Source: Rhizaria sp. SCN 62-66 (lineage: Eukaryota). From it: a stretch of 32,225 nucleotides of DNA. The position numbers and the translations under genes are program-made. A model generated the notes under the pieces. That model saw only the letters and a list, made by a program, of their open reading frames with translations, was not told where the DNA came from and made no database searches. The stretch covers positions 1 through 32,225 of the forward strand of contig MEDY01000343.1 in the NCBI GenBank assembly GCA_001724265.1, given 5' to 3'. Shown here piece by piece: positions 707 through 24,000 of this stretch (position 1 is its first letter; each line of letters opens with the position of its first letter).

Positions 707-786
707 AGTGAAAAATCAGCCTTCAAAGGAAGCACTCGCAAAAAAGCGGTCACCTCGTCCTCACTGCGGCCCGGGCTCCAGTGTCG

Positions 787-886
787 CCCACCGAACCCAC
801 TTACCCGCCCGCGCGCTACTTAGCGCTCACGGTCACCCCGCTGATTTTTCGGCCCAAAGCCGTCCACTTTGGCTTTGGCTACGGAA
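787..886 (-). promoter_or_regulatory. Putative promoter module upstream of RPS6 (+ strand text: CCCACCGA 787-794, CTTAGCG 819-825, ATTTTTCGGCCC 844-855, ACGGAA 881-886)
   Basis: The same four motifs recur in the same order and orientation upstream of the ATP synthase delta gene (13983-14051). Function is inferred. Confidence 0.55.
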
Positions 887-2189: not shown

Positions 2190-4047
2190 ATGCGCGTTTC
2201 GCTTCTCGCCGCGTGCGTGCTGGCCCTGGTGGCTGCGGCCTTTGCCGCGCCGTACTGGTCGTTGTCGGACTCGTACGAGCCCTCGTGCGCCAACTGGGAG
2301 AACGTCAAGGCCGCCTACGATGAGGTCATTGCTGCTGACCCCGTGAAGGACCGCGTCCGCAACAACTTCAAGATCACCTCCGTACGTCTCTAAAACAACT
2401 AGCAAGACTAAAACTAGGGTACACAATTCAATGCTTAGTGGTGTGTGTCTATTCTTTGGCTTCAGATTCTATATCTCATGAATGACACCTTTAAGTGTTC
2501 GTTCTCAATCTGAATCAACTTCATGTTTCTCTCTCATTGTTTGCCATGTCCCACAGGCGTACCACCGCATTGGCACTCTTTTCACCAAGCTCGTCGGTCT
2601 CTGGAAGGCCACCGAGGACTCCCCGCTTCCCGGCGAGTCTGGCTACCTCGCGTATCTTACCGCCCAGCCCCAGTCGTTCCCCACCCCTTGCACGCAGTCT
2701 CACTCTGCTGACTCTGACAACGCGGACGTTGGTGTTGATGCTGAGGCTGCGATTGAGGCCGCCGTCTCGTCTTCTCTGAGCGACGACGCGACGTTTGAGG
2801 AGCACCTCGCTGCTTTCCTCAACCCCAACACCAATTCTGAGACCCTTATCAACTCACGCTCATCCTCGTCCCGTGCTCACAGTCATGCTCACCCCTCGGT
2901 GGCGCTGGCTGCGAACGTGACGTCGACACAGGAGAACTGGCCCGGGCTCGCGGTGTGGGCGTCCAACACCGTCGGCTACGCTATCCGCAACAACATGCTC
3001 TCGTTCGACGTCGGCGCCATCCTCGCTGCGATCGACAAGGCGTACCCGCACATCATCCCTTCCGCCACGGCCGCGCAAATTAAGTCGTTGGTGAAGCTGG
3101 TCGAGGCGACGGTCTTCAAGACGCTGATGACGGAGACGTCGATCGGGCTCGGTAAGGGCAACCGCGACGTGTTCCACGACATCGGGTACTTCTTCTCTCT
3201 CTACGCGACCCACTTCTGCGACCAGCCCGCCTGGGACACTGCGCTGGCGCGATTCACCACATTCATCGCCAAGGTCGACCCCGTGACGCAGAAGGAGATG
3301 CGCACGGCCTTTGCGGCCACCTTCCAGGCGCACTACGCCACCGAGGCCGACCCGCTTCGGTTTGCCGAGGACGTCGAGGCGTCCCTGATCGAGACTGCTG
3401 ACGGTAGTGCCAGTCACGGCAAGATTAGCGTGAGCTCGGAGCAGCGCGAGGCATGGGCGCACAGCGTGATTGCGATGGGTGCGGCACCCCCGCGCGGCCG
3501 CCGGCTGACCGTGAAGGAGCGCGCCGAGCGCATGCTGCTGGGCAACATGCTCGTCGGCCTCCAGGAGCAGACGAACCTGCAGCAAGCCATCGAGGACTCG
3601 ATCCCTGCGCCCAGCGTGATCCCGTGGGGCGGCAAGAACATCACCATCAACTGGGGCTTTGTCTTCACCAAGGCGCTGATGACGCTGCAGTTCGGCAACG
3701 ACGCGCTGTTTGTCGGGCAGGATGTGAAGCCGCGCTCGTTTGACGGCAAGAACTTCGGCGTCCACATGCGCGCGCTGCAGTACAACGCGACCGCAGACGT
3801 GTACGCCTCCATGGGCGGCCGCGAGAGCGACTTGAAGGGGTCCGGCGCCGACGACTGGGTGAGTCTCAAGCACCGGATGCGGTTCATCGCGCCGCTGTTT
3901 CGCTCACGGCAGGATCTTGAGGAGATCACGTGCCACCCCTTCTCGGCGAAGCAACACGCAGCCATCTGGGACTCCAAGAGCAAGCTCCCCACCAGCGACG
4001 ACATCTGCGCCGGCAACTGCTGCACCAAGAACGGTGGACCTAAGTAA
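2190..4047 (+). CDS. Secreted uncharacterised protein, about 560 aa; exons 2190-2381 and 2557-4047; resembles a bacterial hypothetical family (possibly DUF2515-related)
   Basis: Starts with a signal peptide (MRVSLLAACVLALVAAAFA). A phase-0 intron 2382-2556 (GTACGT..CACAG) joins RNNFKITS|AYHRIG. Conserved-looking blocks: NWPGLAVWASNTVGYAIR, GNRDVFHDIG, LVGLQEQTNLQ, DWVSLKHRMRFIAPLFRSRQ. Ends in TAA. The family assignment is from memory, not from a search. Confidence 0.8.
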
Positions 4048-4500
4048 AGTGTGGGAGCGAATGCGCCCGCGTGCGCAGGGTGGCAGCGCGCAATTGTCAC
4101 TGTTTTGCTCTCTTTCTATGTTTTGTTTTAGCAGTCCGAAATATATTTTGTTTAAAAGCACTTGCGGAGTATCAACATGTTCGTGGTATACGTTAATATA
4201 CAATACTCTTTTGATAACTTATTGAATGTTCATCGACGGACGCGTGCCCACCACAAACGAACTTGATGCCTGGCCACTCAAGTTAGTTTATTGTCAACAC
4301 TGCTTTTCAGCGTGGTTCATCTGTAGAAGTGAAATTAATGGCTGTCACGCGAGATTTCTCATATTTATTGACTTGCCCCTACAACGTTTGTTTCTTAAAA
4401 ATTATGTTACTCCTCTCTACCAGCAACCAAACTTATCAGGACTTGCAGGAGTGTTGGGAAACGAAAAATCGCTGCCTTATCCCATTCACAGACGCTCGCT

Positions 4501-7500
4501 ATGAGCCTTCCACTGGCTCCCGACCACGTCGGCAGCATGTCGAGCATTCCAAACCTCCTTGCTGACGGGAATTTTGCCGACTGTGTCATTGTCGCCGGCG
4601 AGGGCCTCCCTGGCGTGACCCCCCTCAAGATACCCGCCCACACAGCCGTGCTCGCGCTCGTCTCGCGACACTTCCAGCGCGCGCTGTTCCCTGGCGCAGC
4701 GCTGCCCACGCTCGACCCGATTGCGTCGTTGCCTGCCGCAGCGCAGCGTGTGGTTGCGCCGTTGCTCGACGCTGTGCGCGCGCGTGCGTGCGCCTCGATC
4801 GTGATTGCCGACGGAGTTGCAACCGAGGCGACGGCGGCGGACAAAGCGATCGTCAGACTTGGAATCGTCGCGGGCGTCGCCGACAAGTCGCATGACGATG
4901 GCAAACGCCTGCCCTTTAGGTACACGCAGATGGTAAACGCTACGATTGATCCCACGAACACGCACGACAAGAGCAAACTGGCTGGTGATATTGCTGCTGC
5001 CGGGAAGACTACTGGCACCGCGCCGCTGCATCTCAACTTCTCCAAGGAGGCAAGCGCGAGCGCTGGCGGGGCTGACAAGGACGTCACCATCACGCCGGCA
5101 GACATCCGTGCGAACCCAACGATTGCACTGTACGACGTCGATCTGCTGTTGGCGAACCACGAAATCGTGTTGCACGCATTCCGCACGGACAACGACGTCA
5201 ACGTGCTGGAACCGATCTATCGCTACAGCAACAACAGCAACAACGCGGCGCACTCTTATTCAGCAGGACACGGGTCTTTTGGAACGCGTGATGGTACCGG
5301 TGCTCGGACGACGCGCGTCAGTGCATATGCTTAGCACGAAGAAGAAGACGGTGTGTCGTCACAGACAGCGCGTAAGACCATGACATTGGAGCAATACCTC
5401 TCTCAGTACGATAAGACCAACTCAACGACGACAGCGACGACTATGAAGACTTCACGAGATGTCGATGCTTCAGTCGCGACTACCTATGTTTCTAGTAGTC
5501 CAGCCATTGGCGCTGCCACAGAGGCGCAGTCCACGCTCCCGTCTCCGTCCGCGGAACTGTGTCTAGAGCGGTATCTGACCGATGCGGACCGCACTGCCGT
5601 GCGCCGCGCGTTTGTTGTCGCCGCGGCCCCTGGTGTTCAGCGCGCGGCCGCGTTCGCCGCGGTTAAGGCGACGGGCGACGCCGTGACGCGCCTGCGCTCG
5701 GGCGTGGGGCCGGCCGAAACCGAGGCCGCGACGGCGGGGCTAACCGCGGGCAGCGTCAGCATGGGCAAGGCGCGCGATGCGATGACTGTGACGGTCACGT
5801 GGCCCACCGACAAAGCGAGGACAGCTGCTTGTAGTGCGAATGGTCACGCAAAGAGTCAGAGTCCGACTCATAGTCAACCCGAGAACCCGTGGCCGTGGCA
5901 GCGTGAGTTTGCGACTGTGCATCTGCCGCTGCTTCCGCCAACGGTTTTGCCTCTGTTGTTGTCTCTCATTTATCAAACTCCCATCGTGAATCCTGCCAAC
6001 TCAACGAGTACGACGACGACAGCGGATCCGTTCGCGGACAGTGTCAACGGAGTCACCAGTCTTCCTCAAGCGGCGACCACTGCGCAGAATGTGGCAGTGA
6101 GTAAACGCTACGACGATAGCCCAGCCTCGTTTGCCCTCGCCGCCGCGGCAATGTTGAGCACGGCTGAGTCTGTTGACGAGAGCAGCAGCGCCGCCAGTGG
6201 CGACTCTGAGGATGTTTTGCCTGTGACTGGCCGTGAAGTTGCGCTTGCCTCTACGACGCTCGCAGCATTGCTCCCGCTCGCTCTCGTCCTCGATGCTGAA
6301 GTCCTGCAGCCTACAATAGCGGCCGCTCTGCTGACCGCGCTATCATTGCGCTCACTCCCGACTTATCTTGCATCAGCCCCGTTTTTCCCCGGCATTGCGC
6401 CCACTGTCATTGCCTTTGCGCGCACTCACGCGGAGCCGTTACTCGCCTCCGCAGCGGTCGAGCGCTTTCCGCCGCGCCTGATGCGCGCGCTCCTGGAAGA
6501 CGACGCACTCGCTGCGCCGGAGCTCGCATGCTTTAAGGCCCTCATGCGTTGGGCAGGCGCGCAACAGCTGCGCGCTGCCGTCTCAGCGCACGCGGCGGGC
6601 CCTTAGACCGCGGCCACAGTCGACGGGCGCGTGCGCGTGGACCTGTCGCTGCCAGCGCTGGCCCCGCTGCTGGCGCCGCTGCTGCCGTACGTGCGCTTCG
6701 CCGCGCTGTCGCCGACGGACCTGCTGCACACGCAGTTGGGCGGGACTGCGGATGAGGCCGCACTCAGCGTGTTGTTGCAGCACGCTTCGCTGGCGGTTGA
6801 CGGCTGCAACGAAGTGCCTGTTGTCGCGCGCACGCACCCAGACAGCGGCAGTAACCGCGATGAAACAAAGCAGGGTGGATGCGTTCACCAACGCGCAAAC
6901 GCACAATCTGGTGAAGACGGAGGACTGTTCGATGGCCCGCTGTTCACAAAACGTGGCAGCGCGACTGCGGCCCGCTCCACCCTGCCCGCGCGCACTGTCG
7001 CGCACTACGCGTCCCACGCGCACGGCATCATCGGCACAGTCTCCGCCCCGGTTGCGCTGCGCGCGCTGCCGCCCGAGCTCGCGGTCGCCGTCGACTGGCG
7101 TTGCCCAGTGCCGCTGACCGCCGCTGCGGCCGCCGCGCTACTCTACGGCCACCCGGCGCTGCCGCCGCCGCCCCCGGGCCTCTGGCGAGCTCGGCGCGGC
7201 GGCGGTTTGATTGCAGACGCAGACGCAGACGCAGACAACGGCGACTCTGTGGCTGCACCGCTGCACGGGCTCGACGGCTGGCTGCTCGAGGCGCGCGCGC
7301 GGGCTGGACTCCAGGCGCCGTGCCCGCTCTCAGGCGGCTCGCTGCGGCCTGCGCGCGCGGTGTGGGCGCAGGCGTGGTCTCAGTACATCGCCGCCTATCC
7401 GCAGCTCGCAGATACACTCGCGATGATGCTCACCGCAGCCCGGTCGAACCCGTCCAGCGCGGTCCCGCGCCCGCTTCCGCTCAGTCCTGCGGGCTGTTCA

Positions 7501-9777
7501 CCTCGCATTGCCGCGGTGCTGCCGCTGCCGGTGCGCGGCGGCGTGGGCGTGCCGGTGTGGGGCTGGGACGCCGCGCGCTGCACGGGCGCCGTGACCGTCA
7601 ACGTCGGCGGCGCAGGCGCGCGGTTTGTCCGTGTCGACAGGCGCCGCGGCGATGAGTTCAACATCACGCACAGTGTACTGCCGCTGGGCGTGCTGGACTG
7701 GACGCCGTACCTCACGCTCGTTGACTCGCCCGTCGCCGCAGACGTCATAGCCGCGCTGGGCCCGCGTGCCGTGTTTGAACCGGTGTTCTCGCGCGGCATC
7801 GTGCCGCCGCGCGCCGTCGACACCGCGCGCGGCTCCAGCGCCGTTTATTTCGCCGCCGAGATGGGCCAGCTCGAGTGGACGAAGCGCGTCGTTGTCAGCC
7901 TCGGCCGCGACCGCGTGCTGCTGCAGCCGCCGCTGCAGCTAGCCTTCGCGCCGTTGCCGCACGCCGTGGGCGCGCGCGTGCTGCGCGGCGTGCAGGCGTG
8001 GGAGCTTCTCGCACGCAACAAATGGGGCCGCGTGGCCGTGGACCGGTGGGGCGCGCGCGTGGGCTTGGCCAACGCGACGTGGCCCCCGCTGCGGCCGCTG
8101 CACACCACGGTTGGGGGCACGCTGCTCGACGACACGAACGAGCCCGTGGTGACGCGCGCATGGGTCTCGCACGGGTTCATAACGCTGCCGCTGGTGACTG
8201 CCGAGACCAGACACGGCGATCGCGCGCTTTCGCACACCGTGGAGCTTGCCAACGCGGACATGCCGGATGCGCCGCGCCCGTCGCGTCCGCGCCCCGGCGA
8301 CGGCAACAATGCAAACAACAACGACGACACCAACAACAATAATAACAATAACGTCAACGATGACGGCGATGATGGTCATGCTGGCGACGGTGTGAACAAT
8401 AACCCGGACGTTATCACGTCGCTTGGCGCGCAGTGGCGCCTGTACGACCAGGCGCAGCAACGCGTTCGCGAGCGCGCGCGCGTGCGGGACGGACTGCGGC
8501 AGCACGGCGCGTGGTCGCGCACGCATACGGTGCCCGTCTGGGCCGCGGCGCACCAAACGCACGTGCTGATTACACCGGGAGGTGCTGAGCCTGTGACGCG
8601 TGACCTCACTGCCGAGAGCGATCTACGCGCGATGCAACGTCCGAGCGCTGCTGCGACCGGTACTGGGTCCAGCAGGGCTGATGCGCACGCACCTGAGCAG
8701 GTGCCGACTGCCGCTGCGCTCGCAGTGGACGCCGCTGCGAACGCCGCGGCCAGCGCGTCCGTGCTGGCGAGCGGCAACGAGGCCCGTATCTGCAGCTTGC
8801 AGCAGCGGCTGCGCGAGCTCTGTGACGCGGCGAGTAACACGCGCCCCGACATTCTCTTGGCAACGCGCGACGGGGACACGTGGTACGCGCGCGCCTCGGC
8901 CATCATAGGCACTGTGAGCGAGCTTGAGCGGCTGGGATGTCCGCCGCGGACGATTGGCGGCGTGGGACTGCCCTGCTCCGAGTTGTCGTCGGTGCAGGTG
9001 TGCTTCGACGAGCCGCGCGGGCTGCTGCATCTGTCGACGTCGGTGCTGCTGCGGCCGGCGTACTCGCCCGCGCTGCTGGCGCTCGTGGCGACGCGGTACC
9101 GGCTCATCGCGGCCTACACCGACAAGCTCGAGCAGCTGTGCGACAGCCTCTTTTCGCACGAAGCCGTGGCCGCAGACGCGCTGCCCGCGCGCGAGTGGGA
9201 GGAAGTCGTGCGCCGCGGCAAGCTGCTACAGGCGCGCACGCTCTTTGCGCTCATCTCCAGCTCGCTCAGCGCCGACATGCAGCACCAGATGCTCGTGGGG
9301 CTGCGCGCGCGGTCTGTGACGCTGCGCGAGCAGATGAACGAGGTGCTCGCCGTGATGCGCTTTATTTACGCGCGCTTCTGGCGCAGCACGCGCGTCACCA
9401 CGATCCCCGTGCCGCAGCGCGCACTCGAGCTCAAGGCGCTCGACGCCGCGCTGGGCCGCCTCGCAGACCGCGCGAAGGCCGGGGTGTGGTTTCGCGCGCT
9501 TGAGGACGCGTGGCTGCACTCGCTCGCGCTCGGAACGCCGTGGACCGCGCACCCCGTGTGGGCGATCGTGCCCGCGCCGGTGCGCCGCGCAGTGCTGGGA
9601 CTGGCCGAGCAATATAAAGAGCGCGGGGGCGCGCCGCGGGACGTATTCACGCCGTTCGTCGGCGCGACATTCCATAATGATGTCATGAGGAGCGATAGTG
9701 TGATTGTGACGCTCAAGGCGATCCCGCTGACAGCCTTTATTGGATGGGAGTCCGTTGGGCTTTCTAACTTGACGTGA
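4501..9777 (+). CDS. Large BTB/POZ-BACK domain protein with a possible split SPRY-like C-terminus, about 1758 aa if the two in-frame TAG codons (5332-5334, 6604-6606) are translated
   Basis: ORFs 4501-5334, 5353-6606 and 6631-9777 share one frame and are separated only by single TAGs. The BTB start (FADCVIV..IPAHTAVLALVSRHFQRALF) is in ORF1 and its continuation (VHLPLLPPTVLPLLLSLIY) in ORF2. The BACK motif (LLEDDALAAPELACFKALMRW) in ORF2 continues as LLPYVRFAALSPTDLL in ORF3. Ends in TGA. Confidence 0.75.
5332..5334 (+). other. In-frame TAG (codon 278 of the BTB gene), candidate recoded codon
   Basis: GCA TAT GCT TAG CAC GAA GAA GAA GAC; the frame is open for 277 codons before and 423 after. 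Confidence 0.7.
6604..6606 (+). other. In-frame TAG (codon 702 of the BTB gene), inside the BACK domain, candidate recoded codon
   Basis: GCG GGC CCT TAG ACC GCG GCC; GC-rich, coding-like context with no polypyrimidine tract; the frame stays open for more than 1000 further codons. Confidence 0.75.
8305..8358 (+). repeat. Imperfect AAC/AAT trinucleotide tract encoding an Asn-rich insert (NNANNNDDTNNNNNNNVN)
   Basis: Read directly from the sequence, inside the BTB gene. Confidence 0.8.
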
Positions 9778-10218
9778 CGTTTGGAGCGTCACGACTATGC
9801 ACAAAACTGCTGCTGACTTGTTAGAACAGCGGCTGGTCGCAATACTATAACATGTAACTGACTATCTGCTCGAATGACTACTGATTTCCTTTGTTTTGAT
9901 GTCCTACTTCTTTTTGTAACCTGATTCTGAATCCGTGCTACAACTTTGTTACGCTTTTGTCTGCTGATCTGTCGCACCTCGTTACCTAGAACATCTGTGA
10001 CAGCAATGTTTAAATACAAATTCAAAAAGATTGTATTCGATGTACACCTTCTTGTTCCAAATAATATCATCATACGATTTCCTCAATTTTAGAATTGTTA
10101 TACCGATCACTACAGCTACTGTTTTCGTGTAAAGTCACTTTTGTGTACACGACGCTTTTTACTCCAGAGTACGAGCCAGAGTCATGAATCCTAGACGGAT
10201 AAACCTGACTGCGCCGCC

Positions 10219-12412
10219 TTACATACCAGAGTAGGCGGGGCCGCCTCCACCCTCGGGCACGGTCCACTTGATGTACTCCTTGGGCATCTTGATGGAGCAC
10301 GTCTTGCAATGCACGCAGTTCTGCGCGTTGATCTGCAGCTTCTTGCTCCCGTCCGCCTTCTCGGGGAACTCATACACGCCGGCGGGGCAAAACCGCGTCT
10401 CGGGCGCCGCGTAGACGGCCAGCGACATGTCCGGGTCGGCCTCCTGCCCGGGCTTGATCCGCAGGTGAGCGGGCTGGTTCTCCTCGTGGCTGACGCCGGA
10501 GCGCGCGAGATTCTCCAGCAGCGGGAACGAGATCACGCCGTCGGGCTTCATGTACTCGATCGGGGTGCAGTCCGCGGCCTTCTTGGTCGCCTCGGAGTCC
10601 GAGGTGTGGCCGTGCGACAGCGTCCACGGAGCGCTCTCGCCGAGCACGAACTGCTCCAGTCCGGCGTTGGCCAAGAAAGGCAGTAGGCCGAACTTGAACG
10701 CGGGGCGGATGTTGCGTACGTCAGCGAGCTCGGCCGTGACGGGGGACTCCTCCATGCGGGACAGGATCTCACCGACCTCGCGGCCGCTAAGCGCGGCGTC
10801 GAGGTCAACGGACTCAGGCGCCGCGAAGGGGAACGAAGCGGAGACGCCACCCTCGGCATCGCGTGAGAAGGCGACGTTGGACGCGGCGGCGATGCGCTCG
10901 AAGATGCCCTCGGCGGCCTCCATGCCGGACTTCATGGCGTTGTGCGAGCCCTTGATCTTGGGCACGTTGACGTAGCCGGCGGAGCAGCCAAGCAGCGCGC
11001 CGCCAGGGAAAGTGACCTTGGGGATGGACTGGTAGCCGCCCTCGTTGATCACGCGCGCGCCGTACGAGATGCACCGGCCGCCCTCGAGCGTGGCCTTGAT
11101 CAGAGGGTGGTGCTTGTAGGTCTGGAACTCCATGTACGGGTTCAGGTACGGGTTCGGGTAGTCGAGGCCGACGACGAGGCCGACGAGCACTTGGTTCTCC
11201 CCAATGTGGTACATGAACGAACCGGCGTAGGTGTCCATGGGCGTCGGGTAGCCGATGGTGTGGACAACCTTGCCCGGCACGTGCTTCTCTGATGGGATCT
11301 CCCAGATCTCCTTCAGGCCGATGCCGTACGTCTGGTTCTCGCGGCCCTCGCGCAGCTTGAACTTAGCGATCACTTCCTCAGAGCATGATCCGCGCGCGCC
11401 CTCCGAGAATAGAGTCTGCTTGGCGCGGATCTCCATGCCGCGGGCGTAGTTGGCCGTGGGCTGGCCGTCCTTGCCAATGCCGACATCGCCCGTGGCAATG
11501 CCCAGCACGGCGGACTTGTCCTCATTGTACAGCACCTCAGCCGCAGCGAAACCAGTGTAGATGTCCACGCCCGCGGCCTCGGCCTGCTCGGCGAGCCACG
11601 CGCACAAGCGGCCCAGCGAGATGACGTAGTTGCCGTGGTTGTCCAGCGAAGGCGGAATCGGCAGCGGGATCGCGGAGGACTCGGTAAGGAAGTAGAACGA
11701 GTCCTCGGCGACGGGCGTCTCGAGGGGCGCGCCGAGCTCGCGCCAGTTGGGGATGAGCTCGTCGAGGTACGTCGGGATGAAGACGTTACCGGACAGGATA
11801 TGGTCGCCGACCTGCGCGCCCTTCTCGACAACGCAGACAGAGAGCTCGATGCCGGCCGCGGTGGCGAGCTGCTTCAGGCGGATGGCGGCAGAGAGGCCGG
11901 CGGGGCCGGCGCCGACGATCACGACGTCGAAGTCGACCGACTCGCGGGGCTCTGTGCGAGATAGAAATTGAACCAGAGGAGATATAGGTCGATGACGGAA
12001 TTAGAAATGCAGTATGTAATGTCAGGTAATAGTCGTGCATAATTCTGAGTCGCTTCAAGAGCACAGAAGCGTCCCGAAGAGAAATATACGGCTCCGAAAA
12101 TGTGTCTGGGTTCGACGTACCAGTGGGGACGAAAGGAGCGGGCTTCTCCTCAGCAGCAGCGGGAGCGGAGAAGGCGCGCACAGAGTCGGTCTTGCCGAAG
12201 CCGGGGAAGCGCGGCATGGCGGTGGAGACGGCGAGCGGGCGCTGCGTGCGGGCGAGACGCGCGACGGCCGAGGTGGTGGCGGCGGGCAGCGAGAACGACG
12301 CGGCCGGGGCAGAGGCGAGCGAGGCGCCGCTGGTGAGCGACAACGCGGACGACGCGGCGCCCGCAGCCTTGAACACACCGCGGTTGAGGCGGGAAATAGA
12401 CCGGCTCAGCAT
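10219..12412 (-). CDS. ETFDH: Mitochondrial electron transfer flavoprotein-ubiquinone oxidoreductase (ETF-QO), about 674 aa; exons 12121-12412 and 10219-11951
   Basis: FAD-binding motif DVVIVGAGPAGLSAAIRLKQ, plus GDHILSGNV, NVPKIKGSHNAMKSGM and the 4Fe-4S region RFCPAGVYE..INAQNCVHCKTCSIK..WTVPEGGGGPAY. Arg/Ser/Ala-rich presequence MLSRSISRLNRG. Phase-1 intron 11952-12120 (GTACGT..CACAG). Ends in TAA. Confidence 0.97.
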
Positions 12413-12946
12413 CGGAGGCTGCTGTGGGAAGTGAAAATGTCGAAACGTGCAAGAGGGGTCGGGTGAGGTGGATCTCATTGGGAGGGGCTTACAAAAGCGT
12501 GGATATAACGACCGGTCAAACGTGAATACGTGTGCTGATTTAAAGAAATGTGGTTAAGTGCGCGATCAAATCAGATATAAAACTTCAATTCAACTGACTG
12601 TTTCTGTGCACTATAACGCGGCGGGAAAATTCTCGACGACTGGTTGCGGAACGAGTCACAGCGTGAGTCGCCACACAGCAGAGCACTTCAAGAAGAGAAA
12701 AGCGAGGAGATGTGACTTGATAACGAGTGTATTGGCACGTGATGCTACACAAAAGAAAACGCAAATAGATTAATAGAGTTGTCTTCTCTTTCCGCGTTCA
12801 GGGGCGCAAAGAGCATGGGTCTCTACCCGCGACAGATCGGCTCAGACGGGGGAGGCGCAAACGGCGCGAACTCCAGCCCGCCCGACCACCGCAGCCGCGG
12901 ACCAAGGAGGGGGGAATGGTGGTGATGACGATGGTGTTGTTGTTGT

Positions 12947-13271
12947 GAGGCCTGGCATGAAGGCCTCGTGGCGGAGACAGCGTCTGCTCTCATCTCATCG
13001 AAAAACAAAACGGAAAGCTTGTCAAAGCGCGGATAAATACTCACGAGGTGAGATGAGAGAGGGGAAGTATCGCTCTCGCACGCGCGCCGCTCCAGCCAGC
13101 CCGTCTAGCCCCCGTGCTTGTGACGCGAGGAGACGAGGGCTGACGCGGAAGTGGCCGCAGTCCAGAACGGGTGACTTGGATCGCGCAGATTGACGAGTTG
13201 CTCTCAAATCTTCACGCCGCCTTGCCTTGTCTTATCGTTGTATCACCAGCGAGCTGACCGGCAGCTGGTGA
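12947..13271. other. Cluster of inverted repeats (potential stem-loops) downstream of the ATP synthase delta gene
   Basis: GAGGCCT-7nt-AGGCCTC (12947-12967); CTCTCATCTCATC (12987-12999) pairs with GGTGAGATGAGAG (13047-13059, one G-U on +); TCACCAGC (13243-13250) pairs with GCTGGTGA (13264-13271). Confidence 0.4.
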
Positions 13272-13295
13272 GTGGAACGAGTGATGCCGACGCAC

Positions 13296-13769
13296 TTACT
13301 GGAGGGCGAGGTTGATGGCGTTGAAGACGTCGACGTTGATGCGAGCGTGGACCTGCTGCTCCTCGGTGGTGGCCTTGGCGAGCTCGGCGTTGGCGTCCTC
13401 GAGGGACTTCTTGACCTTAGCGAGGTCGAAGTCCTCGAGGGGGATGGCCTCGGAGCAGGTCACGGAGGCGGACGAGTTCTCCTCGACGACGAGGAAGCCG
13501 CCGGGGACGAAGAACTTGCTGGGGGCCGCGGTAGCGTCAGCGTAGACGGACACGACGCCGGGCTTGAGCTCAGCGATGGTGGGGGCGTGGTTGGCGAGGA
13601 CGCCCATGTCACCCTCGGTGGTGGAGAGCACGACCTGGTACACAGGAGCGTTGTCGCTGATGACAGCGCTGGGGCTGGCGAAAGTCAGGTTCAGGAAACC
13701 CTCCTTAGCAGCAGGCGCCTCCGCAAAGAGCGTGCGGGTGGCCCGGATAGCACGGAAAGAGCGAAGCAT
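13296..13769 (-). CDS. ATP5F1D: Mitochondrial F1 ATP synthase subunit delta, about 157 aa
   Basis: Presequence MLRSFRAIRATRTLF. Motifs LNLTFASP, GDMGVLANHAPTIAELKPGVVSV, KFFVPGGF and EAIPLEDFD, then a C-terminal helical hairpin. Ends in TAA; this stop overlaps a GTAAGT donor-like sequence, so a short further exon cannot be excluded. Confidence 0.95.
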   Translation of the reverse strand: MLRSFRAIRATRTLFAEAPAAKEGFLNLTFASPSAVISDNAPVYQVVLSTTEGDMGVLANHAPTIAELKPGVVSVYADATAAPSKFFVPGGFLVVEENSSASVTCSEAIPLEDFDLAKVKKSLEDANAELAKATTEEQQVHARINVDVFNAINLALQ

Positions 13770-13982
13770 CTTCTGTGTGGCTAGAACGTCGAGGAGCAAA
13801 AGTTTAAGCAAACAAAAATAGGGTGAGGCGTGCTCCAGTGAAAATGAACGCAAATGCTCGTATATAACACAGGCTGAACTCTCCAAATAAATCACTTTAA
13901 ATGTAAACTACATTGATCCCAGCGAGAAATCAACCTCAACACAAGCGCCCGACGACACAGTTGAGCTCGGTCAGAAGTCGGC

Positions 13983-14051
13983 CCCACCGACCGACCGCTT
14001 AGCGGCTTTACTTCTCTCATTTTTCGGCCCTCTAGCTGGTCTCAGACGGAA
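13983..14051 (-). promoter_or_regulatory. Putative promoter module upstream of ATP synthase delta (+ strand text: CCCACCGA 13983-13990, CTTAGCG 13998-14004, ATTTTTCGGCCC 14019-14030, ACGGAA 14046-14051)
   Basis: Co-linear match to the motif set upstream of RPS6, including an identical 12-mer. Confidence 0.55.
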
Positions 14052-14312
14052 CCCCGAAAAAATCATCATCTAAGCATGCCATACTCTCATTAAACCCCCA
14101 ATACAAAAATAACTACAGACTAGTTAGTATTTCTCATGCAACAATAGATGTATATCGAAAGACTTAAACATGTATTAGTCTAGTGTCATAGCACTAAGGT
14201 TCGAAAAAGAAGAAACATCGCCAATATCAACAGATACCATCACCACCTACCAGCATATAGAAAAACGAAGTAACGAGTGAGCCAGAACTCAAAGCGAACA
14301 TTGCTCGTGCGC

Positions 14313-17300
14313 TTAGAGCTTCATGTTGAAGCTGGGAGGCACATCGGGCTCGTCGTCGTCGTCCTCATCCTTGGCGTCCTTAACAGAACCCTTGTTTTTG
14401 TCATCAGACGCGGTGTCCTCAGCAGCCTTCTCCTTGGCCGCGCTCTCGTCCTCCTCCTTGTCCTTGTCCTCCATCTTCTTGACCGCCGCGGCCTCCGCAG
14501 CCGCCTTGTCACCGCCCTCCTTCTTGTCCGCGCCGCCCTCAGCAGCGCCAGCGTCCTTCTTGTCGTCCTTGTCGCTGCCGTCGAGCGTCTTGCCGTCCGT
14601 CGCGGTCGCGATGACCGTGGGCGGGAAGACCTCGTACTCCTCGCCGGGACGCTGGTCCTCGAGCACGACCACACCGGAGATCTTGGTCGTCACAGGGTGG
14701 AAGCGCTGCGTCGGCGGCACCACGATGAACCGCTGCTGCGCTGGCACCACGCGAGTCGGGTTGGACAGGATCACGACCTTGTCCTCCACCGGCGCGGCGG
14801 GCGTGGCGGCGGCCGCGGCCGCGGGGGCAGCGGCGTCGTCGTCGTCGTCCATGGCAATGGGCTTGCCGGCAAGCGAGCTGCTGCTGATGCTGCTGTTCGT
14901 GCCGGTGGGCGCGGCGGCGACACGGCCGCCTGCCACAGTCGGCACGTGCGCGGGCGTCGGCGACTGCGCGCTCGCACCCGAGCTCGCACTGGAGCTCGAG
15001 TCAGCGGCGGACGACGAGGCGGCGGCGGGCTTGGTGTTGGAGGGCGCGGCGACCGCAGAGGCGGCGCGGGAGAGCAGAGAGCCCGTGCGGGAGAGAGCGG
15101 CGCCCTCGACGCGCTTCTTCTTCTTCTTGCCGATCGACAGCACATTGACGACCTTCTTCTTCTCGTCCTCCTTCTTGGCCTCGGCCGCGGGCTTCGGGTA
15201 CCCGAACCACGACGGGGGCTTCGCGGAGACCAGCTTCCACGCCGTGGGCACCTTGAGCTCCTGGGTCACGCCGATGACGGCGGCGGGCGACAGCGATAGC
15301 GAGATCATGTTGACGAGAGGGTGCCAGTACCAGTACTGGCAGAACAGCGCCGCGCCCGCGATCGCCACCATGCGCTTGTGGCCCGTCGACGACCGAAGCA
15401 CGACAACGCTGTTCTTGCCGCCCGCGTCGACCAGACCGGCGCCGAGGTACACGCCGAGCTTGCCCGCCGTGTCGCCGCGCCGGTTCGTCCCCACGGTCAC
15501 GGCCGCGCGGAAAGCCTCGAGCTTGACCTTGCCGGCGGGCGTGTCCGTCACCCCCTGGAGCAGCATGCCCATCGCGATAAATGCACCCTGCCGCACGAAG
15601 TCCGTCTTGTCCGCGATGAGCGTCTCGAGCAGCGCGTGCGCCTCGGGGATTGCGAGCCCCGCGCCAGCGCACGCCACGCCAACCGCCATCGCGGCGCCGT
15701 ACCGCACGAACGGGTTGTAGCTCTCGGCCAGCAGCGCGACGAGACGCGGCGCCTGCTCGGGCGCGTTGATGAGCACAAAGCCGAGCGCGGTCACGGCGGC
15801 GCGGCGCACGTCATCGCTCGCGTCTGTCACGGCCGCGCGCAACAGCCGCTGGATGGCCGTCGCGTCGCCCGTCGCGGCGTAGGCCAGCGCAACCGTCCAC
15901 GCGCCGCCGTAGCGCACCACGGGGTCCTTGTCGCGCAGCATGCGCGCAATGAGCGCGTCGGCGGCGCCCTCGCGGCCGTAGCTGCACAGCGCGAGACCCA
16001 TAGCGGCGCCGCGGATGGTCTTCTCGTGCGGGGAGTCCGCCGCGAGGGAAAGCAGGTCCTCCTGCACCGTCGCGTCGCCGGAGCCCAGGAAGATGAGCCC
16101 GATCGCGTATCCGGCCGCCTCGCCGACAACGGCAGACTCGGTCACGAGCAGTGCGTCGTGGACCTCGCTGTAAAGCGCGCGGTCATGGGTACCGACGGCC
16201 GAGAGCCCGAGCCCGAGCATCGCGCCGTGCGTCTGGACCTCGTCCGCGCCCTCCTTCTTGAGCGCGGCGCGCAGAAACGGTGTGTTGGCGGTGGAGATGC
16301 CGCACGACATGAGCCCCATCGCGTAGTAAGCACCGGCCTCCTCGAAGGCGGCCGCGGGCGGCGCGGGGGGGTCACCGCCGGCAGGACGGCGCGGGGCCGC
16401 GGCGGCCGCGGCGGCCGCGGCGGAGGCGGAGGCCGCGGTGGGCAGGAAAGCCGCGAGCACGGTCTCGGCCTTGGCGCAGTTGCCGCGGTTGAGGACGCCG
16501 ATGCAGCCGGTGGCGGCAAACTTGTTCCAGCCCGTCGCGGCGCGCAGCCACGGCGCGTGGGTGTGGAAGAACGCGTCCGAAGTCGAGCCGGCGTTCATGA
16601 GCGCGTTCGCCGAGACGATAGCCGAGTGCACGACCAGGTTGCGGGGCTCGGCGCGCGCGACGAAGCTGTCGAGCAGGGCCGTGTCAGTGTGGTTGTTGCG
16701 GCGGAGGAAGTCGAGAGTGAGCCGGGCAGAGACCTCGCCGCTGAGGATCGACGTCAGACGCGTCACCGCGGCGGTCGCGGCGGCCGAGGCCGAAGCGGGA
16801 GCAGAGACGGCGGCAGACACGCGCGCCATGAAGGCTACGTGCTGGTTCTCAACGAGCTCGAACGCGACCTGCAGGTAGCGGAACAAAGAAAACGATTCCA
16901 TTCAGGGCAGTGTTAGTATATATCCATAAAATTCAATCAATAGTTCAAGAATAAAATCAACAAGAAGACAAAAATATTCCAGCTGAAGTTGCGTTACATG
17001 AAAAACGGTCGTGTTTTGGAGCAGTTTAACGCACCTGGAAGGCGAGGAGGGTGTCACGCTCCGACGGGGAGCAGGCGAGCGTTGTCAGCACCTCGGCGAC
17101 GCGCTCGGCCTGGTCGAGGTAAAACAGACACTGGCACAGAGCGAGCACGTCCGAGGTGACGCTGAGCTCGGTGGCGGCGGACGCCGCGGACTCGCCGGCG
17201 CCCTCTGAGGGCCGAGTGTTGTCCTGCGACGGCGCCGTGGTGTAGAGCTTGACCAGTAGGCGGACGAGCGAGTCGCGGAGAGGCTTGGAGTCAACCGCGG

Positions 17301-17907
17301 TCATGGCCGTGGTGTAGAGGTACTTCATCAGCGGGGCAGGCGCGGGGGAGCGGATCAGCATGCTCTCGATGAGGTCCAGGCGGCACGTCTGCACCGACAG
17401 ACCCAGCGCGTCCTTGGAGGAGTTGTCCGAGGCAAAGCAGCCCTCGATGACGCGCTCGACGATGCGCTCGATGCGCGGGTCCAGCTCCGCGGGCGCCGTC
17501 TCGGCCTCGGCGCCGTCCTCGGAGGCCGAGGCGGCGAGGCAGCGCGCGCGCTGGGAGGCCGTGTAGCCGTCGATGCAGGTGGCGACGACCGACTGCGAGT
17601 AGGAATCCGTCGCGGTGACCGAGAACAGGTCGCCGGCGGAGAGGGCAAGACGGACGGCGTCGGCGGGCTCGGACATGTAGTAGTAGATCTTCGACGCAAC
17701 CGAGGCGGCGAGCGCGCGGTGCGGGAAGGCGTCGTCGTCAGCGAGGGACTCGATGGTGGTGACGGCCGAAGCGAGCTCGGACCAGAAGAGGTGGACGGTG
17801 TCGTTCATGAGCACGAGGGCCTCGCCGCGGAGGTCGTGATCCGGCTCGTCAAGCAGCGACAGCATCGGACCCGCCGACGTGTACGCCGTGGTGGTCACAG
17901 AGGCCAT
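14313..17907 (-). CDS. RPN2: 26S proteasome regulatory subunit RPN2/PSMD1, about 1142 aa; exons 17035-17907 and 14313-16868
   Basis: N-terminus TSAGPMLSLLDEP..FWSEL..ASKIYYYM, then LLAFQ|VAFELVE across phase-0 intron 16869-17034 (GTGCGT..TGCAG). PC repeats include WNKFAATGCIGVL, HEKTIRG, DDVRRAAV, ESYNPFVRYG, DFVRQGA and QYWYWHPL; also LSNPTRVVPAQ and an acidic tail. Ends in TAA. Confidence 0.97.
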
Positions 17908-18549
17908 GGGACGACTGGGACTGTGGAGATATCATACGTGAGAGCGGAGCGACACGGAACAGACGGGAAAAGCAACAAAGAGAGGGAACACAGCAAGACG
18001 TTAAATTCAGGTAAGATCGCGCGCTGAAAGATCAAAAGTATTCAATTAAAATGTACACACTAGGCTCCTACTCTAGCAGTCACGCGTATCTCGTAAATCG
18101 TTGATACAGGACTGAAGGCAGAGAGAATGAGGGAAGTCGAGGGTCTGATGACGGTTTGTGGTCAGTGCAAATGGATATGGTCGCATCAGGGAGGCAGACG
18201 CTAGCTAATAGCGTGTAAACAGTAACAACAATTAGATCCGTAGCGCATACAAGAATTGTGTTAATTAGAAAGCCTGGATGTGACGTGGTCGCGCTGTAGA
18301 TGCAAACGTGCATCTGACCTCAACTCATCTGGACCCAGCGGTTTGAAAACAAGCCGCCCAGTCCAGCACGCCCAAAACACGTTTGTGGTGGAACAAAAAA
18401 AAAATATTTCAAGTCAATAATAATGTGATGGGGAGAATATGTGTATGGTTCCACTGGAATTAACGTTAGTACTACATAAAAACTGCTGGTTTTGGCCCCA
18501 GCTGCGCAATATGCTGTCGAAAGTCCACTGTAAACGAGCAGCAAAGGGA

Positions 18550-19652
18550 TCACTTATGGGGGAAGATAGCGCTCTTGACCGTGGCCCAAAGCGCGTCGCC
18601 ACTGCTGGCGTGGAGTTCCTTGTCGGAGAGCAGGCTCCGAAGGTATTCCTTCGAGGAGGCGTGCACGTGGGGGTCCGCGAGGTACCGCTCCGTGGTCTCG
18701 ACCACGAACTGGTGCACCAGGTCGCGCGTACGCTGGCTGTTTAAGTGCTCTGCAAGTCGCAATAATAGGGCGATTATACAAAGAATATAAGATCAAAATG
18801 AGACAGGATGTGTGCGCCTTAAGTACTAATGCAGCTTACACATACTGCCAAAGGATCATCTCCATAAACAATTTTTAACATCATTAAATTGAACATAAAG
18901 TAAGAGTTCAAGTTGCGTACCCTTAAGGAGCAAGTAGGTCGCCTCAACAACTTCAGGCTTCTCAAACGTGTTCTTGACGAGGGAAGCCAGCGCGGCAGAA
19001 GACACGGGGTCAACAGCAATCTCTACAACCAGATGCTTAAGATAGGCCATCGAGACAGGGTCCTGAACGACGTGCGCCAGGAGACCAACAATGGCATCCT
19101 ACAATGAAACAATGAGCAGAAAAAGAAAAGAAAAAAAACATAGCGAACAAGATCAAGTCAGAAATATATGACACAAAGTCAATTCGTAAAATATGAATGA
19201 AAAGTATCACATGTAAGTTTTATCGACACTTACCTGCGTCTCCTTCTGCTGCGAGAGGCGCGAGATGAACTCGATTGCAGTGGCCTGCACCTGGGGCTCG
19301 GTGAGGATCTTGCCACTGAGCTGCACCGCGCTCTCCTTGATGGCGTCGTCGTTGAGCGTGTTGGCCGTAACCTGCGTCGCCATCGTCTTGATCCCCGAGT
19401 CGATCTGGCGCCCGTATGTGAAGTAGATCGTCGCGCTCATTGTCGCCACCATCGCGAGGCCAGTCGTCACGAGCGTCACGAAGCGGAAGGAAAAGATCCA
19501 GTGCTTGATGGCCTCGATGATGTTGCGCGGGTTCCGCGACGACCGGCGCTTGCTGCCGGTGCCGCTACTGCCGCTGCTGTACGACTGCCCGCCGTACGCA
19601 CCGCCCCCGCCTGCGTTGGCTCCAGCGGTCCCGTCAGCGTTGTCACTGCTGC

Positions 19653-19685
<33 letters not shown>

Positions 19686-20394
19686 GTGCCATTGTGGCGT
19701 CTGCCATGGCGGCCGCGAAAGGGTCCGAGGTCGAGTAGTACGCGCGCAGCCACTCCATGCGCCCGCGCTCGGCCTCGGGGTCAGCGCCTGGCACGCGGTG
19801 CAGCGGCGCCAGGCGCACGCGCGCCGCGCGGGCGATCGACACGCTATCTCTCTCCTCGCCGTCCGACATCGACGCTTCTTCTTCCTCCGCGCGGCGCAGC
19901 GCGTCCACGTACCGGTGAAAATACACCTCCGCGAGCTCCGCGTTCGTCAGCGGCGCCGCGGCAAAGTCGAATGCGGGCGGCCGCAGCGCGTTCGGCGACG
20001 GCTGCGCGGCGTCGGCGGCGGCGCTGGCGGCGGAGTCGGAAGAGAAGGGAGGAACACGGCGGGCGTTCCAGACGTCTTTGTCCGCAAGGGTGGGGAAAAC
20101 AGGGGTAGCAAACAAATCATCAGGAACGGGGATGTTGGCTGCAGGAGTTGGCTGAACAGGCTCGGTGACGGGCCCAGGCTCCGGGACGGGCTTCGACCGG
20201 AACCAGGAGAAGAATGAAGACGTTGGCGCGTGCTAAACAGAAGCGACCGTCGGGACCAGAGTCGTTCGCGGTATGCGGACTAAGGGTGTGCCCACAGTGG
20301 AGAAATGTCGTTTTGCAATCTTCGTCAAGAGCACGGTAGACTGAGGAATGCGAGTGGGGAGCTGCCGAGAGGCAGTAACGATTGCCCCCCGCAT
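18550..20394 (-). CDS. Probable mitochondrial single-pass membrane protein of unknown function, about 512 aa if the TAG at 20233-20235 is translated; exons 19234-20394, 18921-19098, 18550-18749
   Basis: Presequence-like N-terminus (MRGAIVTASRQLPTRIPQSTVLLTKIAKRHFST), a hydrophobic segment (FVTLVTTGLAMVATMSATIYFTY) and amphipathic helical repeats ending GDALWATVKSAIF. Introns 19099-19233 (GTAAGT..TAG) and 18750-18920 (GTACGC..CAG) keep the frame. Ends in TGA. The start could alternatively be the in-frame ATG at 20460. Confidence 0.75.
19654..19683 (-). repeat. (AAC)10 microsatellite encoding poly-Asn
   Basis: Perfect (GTT)10 on the + strand, inside exon 1 of the membrane protein gene. Confidence 0.95.
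20233..20235 (-). other. In-frame TAG (codon 54 from the ATG at 20394), candidate recoded codon
   Basis: GCT TCT GTT TAG CAC GCG CCA joins ORF 20233-20460 and ORF 19207-20115 in the same frame. The next in-frame ATG is about 120 codons downstream. Confidence 0.6.
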
Positions 20395-21033
20395 CTCAGT
20401 ACCTTCTCCTCGACGCTCTACACAAGAGGAAATGTAACGAGGAAATGTCGTGTTGAGCATGTCTTACTTAAAGTCCCGTGCTTTCTTACTAAATTTGTAT
20501 GTGGAATTTGTATTTACATTACAATTAACGATGAATGTGTTCTGCATGACAAGGCGGCGATTCGGCCGCAGATCGGCACACTTGACAGGAGTCAACGCCG
20601 AAACGTTTGTGGTCACACTTAACCTAACACTCATGTGGCATATCCGAAAGGTTGCCGGTAGATATTTATATAGATTCAAGTTGTTCGCACTTAAAGGGGT
20701 TTGTAACTAAAGTAGCACATCTCTTGTACGATGTCTATGTGATAGCGTGTCTGTCAAATATCGACAGCCGTCGAACGAGCCAAATGAATCTTACGACTAT
20801 ACTCCGTAAAAACGCGTGTATACTTTGCCAATCAAACGCATACTCGGTGACAACTTGTCGGATGTTGCGATATGTATTATATCACGATTCCATTGTTATC
20901 TCAGAAGATTTCATTGCGTTTGTCTTCGCTCAAACAAGTCGTGTCTTAGTTGGGTCTCGTGCTATCATCTCATCCTTCGAACTTGTCTCTTCGCCTGCTC
21001 CTCGGATCTATTGACATACAGGTACAGCGCCCC

Positions 21034-24000
21034 ATGCCTAACTGGTCGCCTGGGTCTTTCTCTAAGAGCGCTCTTGTTGTCGCTCTCGCGCTCGCCCTCA
21101 CCATCACCGTCGCTGCAACCTCTCACACTTCCCCAGCAACCCTAGTCCCTACCTCTCTTGCAGGGGCCTCCGCGTTCTCAGCGTCCCGCACGACTCCGCA
21201 CGACAACGCACTCACATCCATCGAGAACCTACTCCGTTTACTCGCCTCCGTCCCCGCGACCTCCATCACGACCAGCCCCACTCTCGGCTTCAACGATGTC
21301 CACGCTCGCGTTCACTCTGGCACTGGCAACGGCGTTGGCGTGAGTTCTCCCTCAAGTCTGTCCTCCAGCGCCCCATCTGCCAGCGACGCGCCCAAAAAGC
21401 CGCCGCGGCTGCACCCAATCCCTGACACGTTCCGTCCCGGCGACGACATCACTGTGTCGTGGAACAACGTGCCGCAACCCGACTGGATCGACTGGGTGGG
21501 GCTCTACTGCGGCGCGCAGGCGCAGACGCTCGACTACGCAGATCTGCAGCTCGTCGGGCTTATCCCCACCGGCGCTGGCAAGGCGGCCCGGTTCCCTAGT
21601 CTTGAGGAGCGTCGGTGCGACTACCGTGTCGACTATGTCAAGACGAGCCTTTTCTCGCCTGACGACAATAGCACCGCTGAGACGGCGACTGTGAGCGGCA
21701 TGAGTTCTGACGCGAGCGCGCATCTCACGCTGTACGACGACGACAACTACTACAGCGACGTTGAGGTCGCTGCATTGAAGGCCAACGCTGCTGCAACACG
21801 CGCCGCAGCTGCCGCTAACAGGGCCAGCCTGTCTAACGAGGACTTTGCTCTGCTCGCGGCGTACATGCCCAGCGTAGTCAACTCCATCATCAGTGCAGCA
21901 CCGACCAGCAACAGCGAGGTGAAGCTGCCGCAGCCAATTCTAGAGCACGCTCTGAGTGCGGGTCCGCCCAAACGCAGCAACCGCAAACCGCGCGTTTCTC
22001 TCGCAGCGGCCGCGAACGCTGCCGCTACGGCTCCTGGCGCTGTGACGATCACGGCGGACGGCGTCGTGGTTGGCGAGGGCGAGCGGTTAGAAGACAACGA
22101 GCGCTGGGCACGCGCGGTGTGGCGCCGTATTGTTTCTCAGTCCCGCGTCCTGCGCAACATTAAGCTCAACAGCAATAACAACAATGAGAGCAACAACAAT
22201 AATGGCATTTATCAAGAGGCGGTAACTGAGGTTTTGCAACTCAAGTCGTTGCTGCTTGAGAACTTCAGTAAGATCAAGCACATGTTCCGTTTTACTGTAA
22301 TTGCCACCGTCACCGTGCCCAGCTCCGTCCCGCTCTCGCGCCCGCACCAGGTGCGCCTCGCCCATAGTAACGAGACGGGGGCGCTCTGGGTGAGCTACAC
22401 CGCGCAGGACTCGGTTGCCGTGCGTCCCACGTGGGTTGAGTTTGGCACCGCCCCAAACTCCCTGTCGCGCCGCATTGCTGCTGCCAGTGAGACACACACC
22501 GCGCGCGAGATGTGCGCCGCGCCCGCTAACGTCACGGGACAAGTGCTGTTCTCGAATCCGGGACATCACCACAGTGCGCTGATGACGGGGCTCAAGGCAG
22601 ACACGCGCTATTTCTACCGTGTCGGCAGCGAAAGCACTGGCTGGTCGCCAGTCCACTCGTTCATTGCACCCGCCGCCTCCACAAAGCAGGGAGTGAACAC
22701 AAATGCGAACCCTAACGGCGACGTGGGCGCAGCTGCGAACGCCGACGACAGCGACAAACCAGTGCGCCTGGCGTTCGCGAGCGACTGGGGCAGCTACAAG
22801 GCCCCGCGCAGCCACTCAACCGTGTCACGCATTTTGGCCGACGCCGTGGCCGGCGACGCCGCGACGGGGGCCGCTGCGCCACCGCTGCGCGCCGTGTTTG
22901 CCGTCGGCGACGTGAGCTACGCACTGGGCTCGACGCTGCTGTGGGACAGGTTCCTGCGCATGGTGGAGCCGTTGTCGTCGCGGGTTCCGCTGCAGGTGAC
23001 CGTGGGCAACCACGAGTACACGTACCGCACGAGCGCCACGGGCACGGACATCACGGGCGAGCAGTACCCCGGGTGGCACCCCAAGTGGGGCAACATGCGC
23101 CACGACTCCGGCGGCGAGTGCGGCGTTGCTTTGGCGCGCCGCTTCAAGTCACCCTCGGGCCCTGGTGCGCGGCCCGCTGCTGCTGACGTCAGCAGTGGCA
23201 ACGCCAGCAGCGACGACGACAAGGACCAGGGCAACGGTGTGTTTTGGTACGCACTCGACCAGGGCGCGGCTAAACTCATCGCGCTGTCAAGCGACCACGA
23301 GTGGACCCACGGGTCCCGCCAGCACGCGTGGCTCAACCGCACTCTGGCCGCGGTCGACCGCACCACGCAGCCATTTGTTATCGTGCTGATCCATCGGCCG
23401 CTGTATACCACGCAGCTCTGCGAGGACGACGAGCAGATGGTGGCGATCCGCATGCGCGCCGAGCTGGAGCCGTTGCTGCAGTTCCACCGCGTTTCGCTCG
23501 TCATCAGCGGCCACCAGCACTCGTACGAGCGCTCGTGCCCGGTGCACGGCGAGCGCTGTGTGGAGCAGCCTAAAAACTGCGACAAGCGCACTGGAGAGTG
23601 CCGCAAGCAAGCCGTGGGCGCGCATGGTTACGCTGAAGGCATTGCCGCTGCAGCTGCCTCGGCAAGTGCTGGCAGTGCTGAAGCTGATATCTTGTGCGAG
23701 AGTGGCGCGGCAACCTTCGGCGCTGGTTCTGCTGCCGTCTCGCACTGCGCCGGCCGCCGTGACCCCAACGGCAACAGCAACAGTCACGGCGACGATGGGG
23801 ACGATGATGCGAGCGTGAGCGGCGACGACACGGAGAGCAAGCGCAGTCTGTACAGCCACGTGTGGCGCGGCACGGTACACCTGGTCGCGGGTAACGCGGG
23901 CGCACCGCTGCAGCCGTGCGGTTTCAGCGATAAGTTCGGCAAGTACAGCGTCGAGCGCGAAAACGTGCACGGGTATTTACGCGCGACTGTGAGCAAGAAA

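Follow-up and report, generated by a model that had tools for sequence, protein, structure and literature searches.

In nuclear genetic codes UAA and UAG nearly always change their meaning jointly. The nuclear lineages reported to split the two are a single rhizarian, a single fornicate and a number of phyllopharyngean ciliates (PMC5304391, PMC11687900). In 2017, Panek and colleagues reported that Rhizaria sp. exLh, a member of the Sainouroidea, reads UAG as Leu and keeps UAA and UGA as stops; in their account 384 UAG codons were found in 71 transcripts, proteasome genes included, and sainouroids are described as coprophilic (PMC5304391). In the same paper the fornicate Iotanema spirale was described as using UAG for Gln, at about 8% of its Gln codons, with UAA as the main stop (PMC5304391). 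In 2024, McGowan and colleagues described phyllopharyngean ciliates in which UAG stands for Leu or Gln and in which suppressor tRNA genes were found (PMC11687900). Here we analyze a stretch of 32,225 nucleotides deposited under the name Rhizaria sp. SCN 62-66 (GenBank assembly GCA_001724265.1, contig MEDY01000343.1, positions 1 to 32,225), hereafter called the window, in which two genes carry three in-frame TAG codons. A preliminary description had proposed that UAG is an amino acid codon in this DNA, with UAA and UGA as stops, and had named the same few lineages as precedents. We found that the three TAGs are real and that, judged by homology, they lie within coding sequence and are not removed by introns of the type that the organism uses; whether TAG is translated as an amino acid in this organism we regard as evenly balanced.

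The first TAG (TAG1) is located at 5332-5334 on the forward strand, where it forms codon 278 of gene 1 and lies in a region of poor conservation and lower G+C content at third codon positions (GC3). The second (TAG2), at 6604-6606 on the same strand, is codon 702 of the same gene and falls in the loop between the motifs 'RW.G..Q' and 'LLP.VRF' of a BTB-BACK module, and the third (TAG3), at 20235-20233 on the reverse strand, is codon 54 of gene 2. All three were found where they had first been placed, with the flanking peptides as quoted then. The confident reading frames of the window amount to 7745 codons and hold 3 TAG (about 0.04% of codons), 0 TAA and 0 TGA in frame, with no frameshift over the 1758 codons of gene 1, which bears out the earlier claim that internal TAA, TGA and frameshifts are absent. 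A recount of the eight ends visible within the window again gave five TAA and three TGA, and with the end of the RPS6 gene, seen as TAA on an overlapping contig (L001), the total comes to TAA 6, TGA 3 and TAG 0 of 9.

Like exLh, as it is described by Panek and colleagues, the window has UAG alone in frame and the other stops at the nine gene ends observed, and its lineage may be related, as the ETF-QO tree discussed below suggests. Like Iotanema in that same account, it would combine a UAG-only change with a low usage, under which conserved genes can lack UAG; unlike Iotanema, it comes from an unrelated lineage, and its usage is lower still (about 1.6% with TAG as Gln, from 3 TAG and 190 Gln codons). 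With the phyllopharyngean ciliates of the 2024 report it would share a UAG reassigned alone, a preference for UAA as a stop and an origin in uncultured organisms known from metagenomes. Those ciliates, however, are reported to have widespread UAG and identified tRNAs, whereas the window has 57-77% G+C in its genic 2-kb bins, uses TGA as a stop and bears no ciliate sign.

It was also suggested that each TAG is flanked by open, coding-like sequence. The coding-like part held, on homology and codon periodicity, but openness itself is not above chance, as 13 of the 347 TAG trinucleotides in the window are preceded by 53 or more open codons and followed by 100 or more, with 10 of these 13 antisense or off frame. 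Since open flanks are cheap in GC-rich DNA, the coding case rests on homology and codon periodicity. When TAG is read through, antisense frames of 816 and 961 codons open at 7498-9948 (reverse strand) and 14274-17159 (forward strand), and for any code in which TAG is sense such long antisense open reading frames (ORFs) would be a gene-calling trap in DNA of this composition. Two further TAGs, at 13908-13910 (reverse) and 20947-20949 (forward), whose readthrough extends the ORFs of ATP synthase delta and of a purple acid phosphatase, respectively, in the 5' direction, were considered as additional cases and rejected, as they precede an evident start Met with a targeting peptide and thus belong to 5' untranslated regions. 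The unannotated stretches of the window were scanned for further TAG-containing coding ORFs, and none with coding statistics was found.

Gene 1 forms one frame of 1758 codons on the forward strand (4501..9777), which closes with TGA at 9775-9777. A HMMER search with its residues 1-1200 against 1.84 billion representatives gave seven hits, three of which are the window's own pieces: P0127 (aa 1-277), P0126 (aa 294-701) and P0003 (from aa 711), the products of standard-code gene calling, which breaks the gene exactly at the TAGs. The top foreign match, P0128 (836 aa, E 3e-63), is encoded in a single ORF and is collinear with gene 1 over aa 12-96, 465-495, 610-761 and 869-934, so that it spans all three TAG-separated pieces. 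It is 42% identical to the gene 1 N-terminus over 85 aa and aligns on either side of TAG1 within its one ORF. Around TAG2 its identity is 63% over 155 residues (aa 610-761); Pro701, directly 5' of TAG2, is invariant, and the homology is back six codons after it. Two other proteins, P0130 and P0131, which are BTB-BACK-TLDc proteins according to Pfam, also align across TAG2, with the invariant 'RW.G..Q' before and 'LLP.VRF' after it. The G+C pattern of codon positions 1, 2 and 3 is continuous over TAG2, with a GC3 of 0.80-0.93 on both sides and 0.93 just downstream; around TAG1 the periodicity is weak. On these comparisons TAG1 and TAG2 lie inside coding sequence, and the evidence is strong for TAG2.

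The notion that TAG1 and TAG2 are borders between separate genes was rejected, as the single ORF of P0128 covers all three pieces. It fails also because the segment that follows TAG2 lacks an ATG over about 270 codons and because a gap of only 45 nt would be left after TAG1. By its domains the gene 1 product is classed as a BTB-BACK protein: the Pfam BACK family was recognized in the excised aa 604-780 at 27.3 bits (cut-off 20.9; 19.8 bits with the whole protein), BTB was matched below threshold (13.4 bits, E 0.09), and a profile including P0130 and P0131 matches SPOP and KLHL structures with E values of 3e-16 to 1e-6. Like KLHL, SPOP and BTB-BACK-TLDc proteins, it combines a BTB-like segment at the N-terminus with a BACK segment. 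Unlike these proteins, it has a gap of about 570 residues between the two and a C-terminal part of about 1,050 residues of no assigned family, with no Kelch or TLDc domain.

A word-indexed homologue search with the whole of gene 1 returned the window's own piece alone, Pfam gave no match on short fragments 3' of TAG2, and nothing was matched in genome collections, scanned with gene 1 and RPN2, or among viral contigs. An AlphaFold model of the BACK region, made from a four-row alignment, reached a mean pLDDT of 48.5 and was set aside as too poor. In the relative the gene 1 orthologue is itself called as at least two ORFs, with P0128 ending at about query aa 969 and P0132 beginning at about aa 1030; the two sit on ENA contigs of up to 77426 bp.

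The third TAG lies in gene 2 (19207..20394, reverse strand), which, counted from the ATG at 20394, has 395 codons and a TGA stop; a further in-frame ATG lies at 20460. Its product has an N-terminus that is basic and lacks acidic residues, as well as a C-terminal membrane segment that is conserved, and no family was found for it in Pfam or in the ESM Atlas. The product shares 62% identity with a homologue, P0134, over aa 284-390 (107 C-terminal residues), and the two also have a block of conservation at aa 152-167 in common. TAG3 is located between the two in-frame ATGs and this block, and the first ATG 3' of TAG3 is aa 176, that is, after the block. Since no ATG lies between TAG3 and the block, the start of gene 2 must be 5' of TAG3, at 20394 or 20460. 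Between the ATG at 20394 and TAG3 the gene encodes 53 residues, basic and with no acidic one among them, which to the eye resemble a mitochondrial presequence. The ORF of P0134 opens near the TAG3 position, and codon periodicity is weak around it. A metagenome scan with gene 2 and P0134 found no relative. An upstream exon 1 joined through the donor-like GTGCGA at 20690 was considered and rejected, as the DNA there is AT-rich and a TAA stands in frame right before the donor; the region upstream of gene 2 (20470-21000) is AT-rich and holds no candidate first exon.

As the source is metagenomic and its depth low, at about 5-10, it might be asked whether the TAGs arose in assembly or sequencing. 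The JGI contig L001 is 100% identical to the window over positions 1-7175, carries TAG1 and TAG2 and adds 1.3 kb beyond the window edge; a second metagenome scan gave L001 alone for the same organism, with no further contig or relative. A contig of 2025 from a different study (X4) covers 6193-6966 with 0 differences and reproduces TAG2; the X4 contigs listed leave 5161-5449, with TAG1, uncovered, and the 5' end of gene 2 is likewise without a listed contig. Furthermore, 7 contigs are recorded for each of the ORF pieces that end exactly at TAG1 and at TAG2, and the TAG-bounded pieces P0127 (277 aa, closing at TAG1), P0126, P0003 and P0133 occur on 6-7 contigs, which come from up to four sources. 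This evidence is at the level of contigs aligned to the window. Because L001, the X4 contig and the recurrent TAG-bounded pieces agree, the TAGs are not assembly errors, and an artefact is hardly credible.

The genes of the window are not free of introns, as the RPN2, RPS6 and secreted-protein genes are each spliced, and the TAGs could in principle be removed from the mRNA. The RPN2 intron (16867..17032, reverse strand; 166 nt, GTGCGT...TACTAAC...CAG) was recognized from an RPN2_N Pfam match split over two frames and from a spliced contig of the RNA library X6 that omits 16867-17032, and it served as a positive control for the intron type of the organism. The secreted-protein gene has an intron at 2382-2556 (forward strand) with donor GTACGT and acceptor CAG. 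The RPS6 gene has two on the reverse strand, intron 1 at about 457-699 (about 243 nt, ending in CAG) and intron 2 at about 165-378, the 3' boundary being approximate, with donors GTACGA and GTACGT. The four introns observed thus have donors of the form GTRCGW (GT[AG]CG[TA]), lengths of 166 to about 243 nt and the acceptor CAG wherever the 3' end was determined. Introns are few; the branch site of the RPN2 intron, TACTAAC, is yeast-like, exon 1 of RPS6 consists of ATGAAG only, and by eye the RPN2 intron is AT-rich (about 36% G+C) and RPS6 intron 1 mid-range (about 53%).

No GTRCGW donor was found between 5136 and 5331 on the forward strand, upstream of TAG1, or between 20460 and 20236 on the reverse strand, upstream of TAG3. 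On the forward strand such motifs occur at 5108 and 5130, within the conserved 'LYDVDLLL' block or ahead of it, and at 6008, upstream of conserved blocks. In the sequence, then, no intron of the organism's own type contains the TAGs or ends at them. Excision of short or atypical introns with ...TTAG at their 3' end, and RNA editing, were considered too, since the pyrimidines before each TAG (cTTAG, ccTTAG, gTTTAG) look acceptor-like, an in-frame GTC lies 15-27 nt upstream of each, periodicity is weak around TAG1 and TAG3, and the ORF of P0134 starts close to the position of TAG3. We nevertheless consider removal from the mRNA very improbable, because none of the four observed introns ends in TAG, no GTRCGW donor is placed to excise any of the three, the residues that immediately flank TAG2 are homologous to P0128, no joint falls at a TAG site among the 15 joints listed, and no first exon is visible 5' of gene 2.

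It was proposed in the preliminary description that TAG is a rare sense codon. Its rarity (3 of 7745 codons) and its place inside sequence that is coding by homology stood; the sense reading itself, which we hold to be the best explanation at about even odds, would have the following form. UAG would be translated, UAA and UGA would terminate, and a tRNA with a CUA anticodon would most likely insert the amino acid, with Gln and Leu as candidates. UAG would then be a very rare sense codon, tolerated in weakly biased, fast-evolving genes only and unused as a terminator. That ribosomes read the TAGs, and by what means, is what we infer from these comparisons. ARAGORN predicted 0 tRNA genes on the window. 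The three sites were said not to be conserved and to leave the amino acid unidentifiable from this DNA, and all three indeed lie at variable or unalignable positions. The sole hint is a Pro-Gln in P0128 that adjoins TAG2 in a variable loop, and Gln at TAG is a guess.

A number of observations weigh against translation of UAG as an established codon. The TAGs are confined to 2 of about 10 window genes, three sites in two poorly conserved proteins, and none occurs in about 3,900 codons of ETF-QO, RPN2, ATP synthase delta and the acid phosphatase, which also bears out the claim that TAG is absent from the conserved housekeeping genes. As all three fall in variable loops, there is no conserved column from which the amino acid could be named. 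Unlike exLh, for which 384 UAG in 71 transcripts are reported, the window has 3 TAG among its 7745 codons, with RPN2 free of them. Were TAG well established as a Gln codon, the abundant CAG (165 codons) should have yielded more than 3 TAG by C-to-T change. The exclusive use of TAG is weak evidence, because with the codon usage of the window about 67% (66-68%) of random single-base nonsense mutations would give TAG, so that three of three under random decay has p ~0.3. The lack of terminal TAG in nine gene ends has p ~0.13 if TAG is 20% of stops, in what is a small sample. The codon before each TAG ends in T (GCT, CCT, GTT), which plain reassignment does not predict, and among the pieces listed from the RNA libraries X5 and X6 no contig piece spans a TAG. 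The caution that the sample is small was well placed, with only three sites, two genes and 9 gene ends.

Several of these observations would follow if the code were standard and the TAGs were recent null alleles, that is, nonsense mutations fixed in a clonal population, two in gene 1 and one in gene 2, both genes being young pseudogenes or dispensable. The share of nonsense mutations that would be TAG, about 67%, fits this explanation, as does the lack of TAG in any conserved gene; two TAGs in one gene are expected once that gene is dead; both genes are fast-evolving and have no strong family assignment, gene 1 belonging to a large BTB-BACK class that may have paralogues; and the relative's orthologue, too, was called as two or more pieces. 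The T that precedes each TAG would fit a single TpC process, T-CAG to T-TAG. Gene 1, however, runs for 5.3 kb without a frameshift, TAA or TGA, and its codon bias is intact after TAG2 (GC3 0.93). Three nonsense and no frameshift mutations have p ~0.03, on the assumption that indels are about twice as common as nonsense mutations among disabling lesions, and 2 dead genes of about 10 would be unusual for a compact, gene-dense contig. Identical alleles are found in runs from 2015 to 2025 in different studies, and contigs of a polyA RNA library (X5), a kind of library that may contain DNA, match 5641-5882 after TAG1 and 6774-7516 and 8075-8319 after TAG2 with 0 differences. The marks of a pseudogene, namely frameshifts, mixed stops, decayed bias or a lack of transcripts, were not seen, as would also be the case for a very young one. 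We regard null alleles as unlikely on balance, yet as an explanation with real weight.

The sequence around the TAGs might instead point to context-dependent readthrough with the code unchanged, in which eRF1 treats UAG as a stop and near-cognate tRNAs yield enough full-length protein. A C at position +4 is a leaky stop context in eukaryotes. CAC directly follows two of the three TAGs, T at -1 is common to all of them, and TAG is extremely rare. T makes up 0.118 of third codon positions overall, and just 7% of in-frame CAG codons have a T before them; the pattern of T before TAG was noticed post hoc on three sites and could reflect a mutational origin by TpC-to-TpT change or a decoding context. 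Readthrough is nonetheless doubtful and, in our estimate, has a rather small chance of being right, as gene 1 would need two events per molecule and the yield would be low, TAG2 is intradomain when programmed readthrough is usually found at C-terminal extensions, no gene is terminated by TAG (0 of 9), and the statistic on context is post hoc with n = 3.

As a more speculative view, to which we would give only a low probability, the window might record an early capture of UAG, an ambiguous intermediate in which UAG has been purged from gene ends and is decoded inefficiently in a favourable context. That context would be T before and often CAC after, and UAG would be confined, improbable as we hold this too, to a few unconstrained positions in weakly expressed genes. 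The organism would in that event be a previously unsampled, possibly rhizarian wastewater protist, which we advance no more firmly than the rest of this view.

The window as a whole is eukaryotic DNA, with a GC3 of 0.75-0.90 in coding sequence and a G+C content of about 0.40 in intergenic regions, and about 10 genes were recognized in it. These are the RPS6 gene (reverse strand, partial at the window edge), the secreted-protein gene, gene 1, the ETF-QO and ATP synthase delta genes, both conserved and without TAG, the RPN2 gene (reverse strand), gene 2, the purple acid phosphatase gene (20950-24078, forward strand), an ORF without a name and, at 26658-32225 on the forward strand, a large uDENN-domain protein that is open at the 3' end. 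About 460 extra residues, beginning like a signal peptide and including Asn runs, extend the phosphatase at its N-terminus. The uDENN reading frame, open at its 3' end, exceeds 1856 codons, with about 77% G+C over 28-32 kb and a GC3 of 0.86, and uDENN is its sole match. Long Asn and Ala runs recur across several of the window genes. Within RPN2, positions 16395-16440 are GC-rich and encode an alanine run; in all four runs numerous foreign contigs and loose ends pile up at this stretch, and the depth spikes there do not come from the window's organism.

The stretch recurs in sequencing runs from bioreactors, wastewater and activated sludge that belong to 8 studies of 2015-2025, and three of these runs are possible sources of the DNA. 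In a tree of ETF-QO, the clade of the window and environmental sequences groups with the rhizarian Amorphochlora, the nearest named taxon, with a support of 99/90. Because the tree is built from one gene and includes few named taxa, the placement near Amorphochlora is a lead only, and the lineage of the organism is possibly rhizarian; RPN2 gave matches in the ESM Atlas without taxonomic resolution. In exLh the amino acid is established as Leu. The window's organism is no more than a candidate member of the Sainouroidea, or even of Rhizaria. By analogy, the coprophily reported for sainouroids would suit an organism of wastewater. A literature search, with supplementary files outside its scope, found no UAG-only code reported for a wastewater or cercozoan organism besides exLh.

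If UAG is indeed translated here, the organism would represent a new lineage with a known code variant, the reassignment of UAG alone, and a further independent data point on the capture of stop codons. A GC-rich case with TGA as a stop and with TAG so rare could show an early stage of such capture. Standard gene callers fragment genes of this kind, and databases already list gene 1 as three 'proteins'. As the organism is recurrent in wastewater and bioreactor metagenomes from 2015-2025, the data that could settle how it reads UAG are already public.

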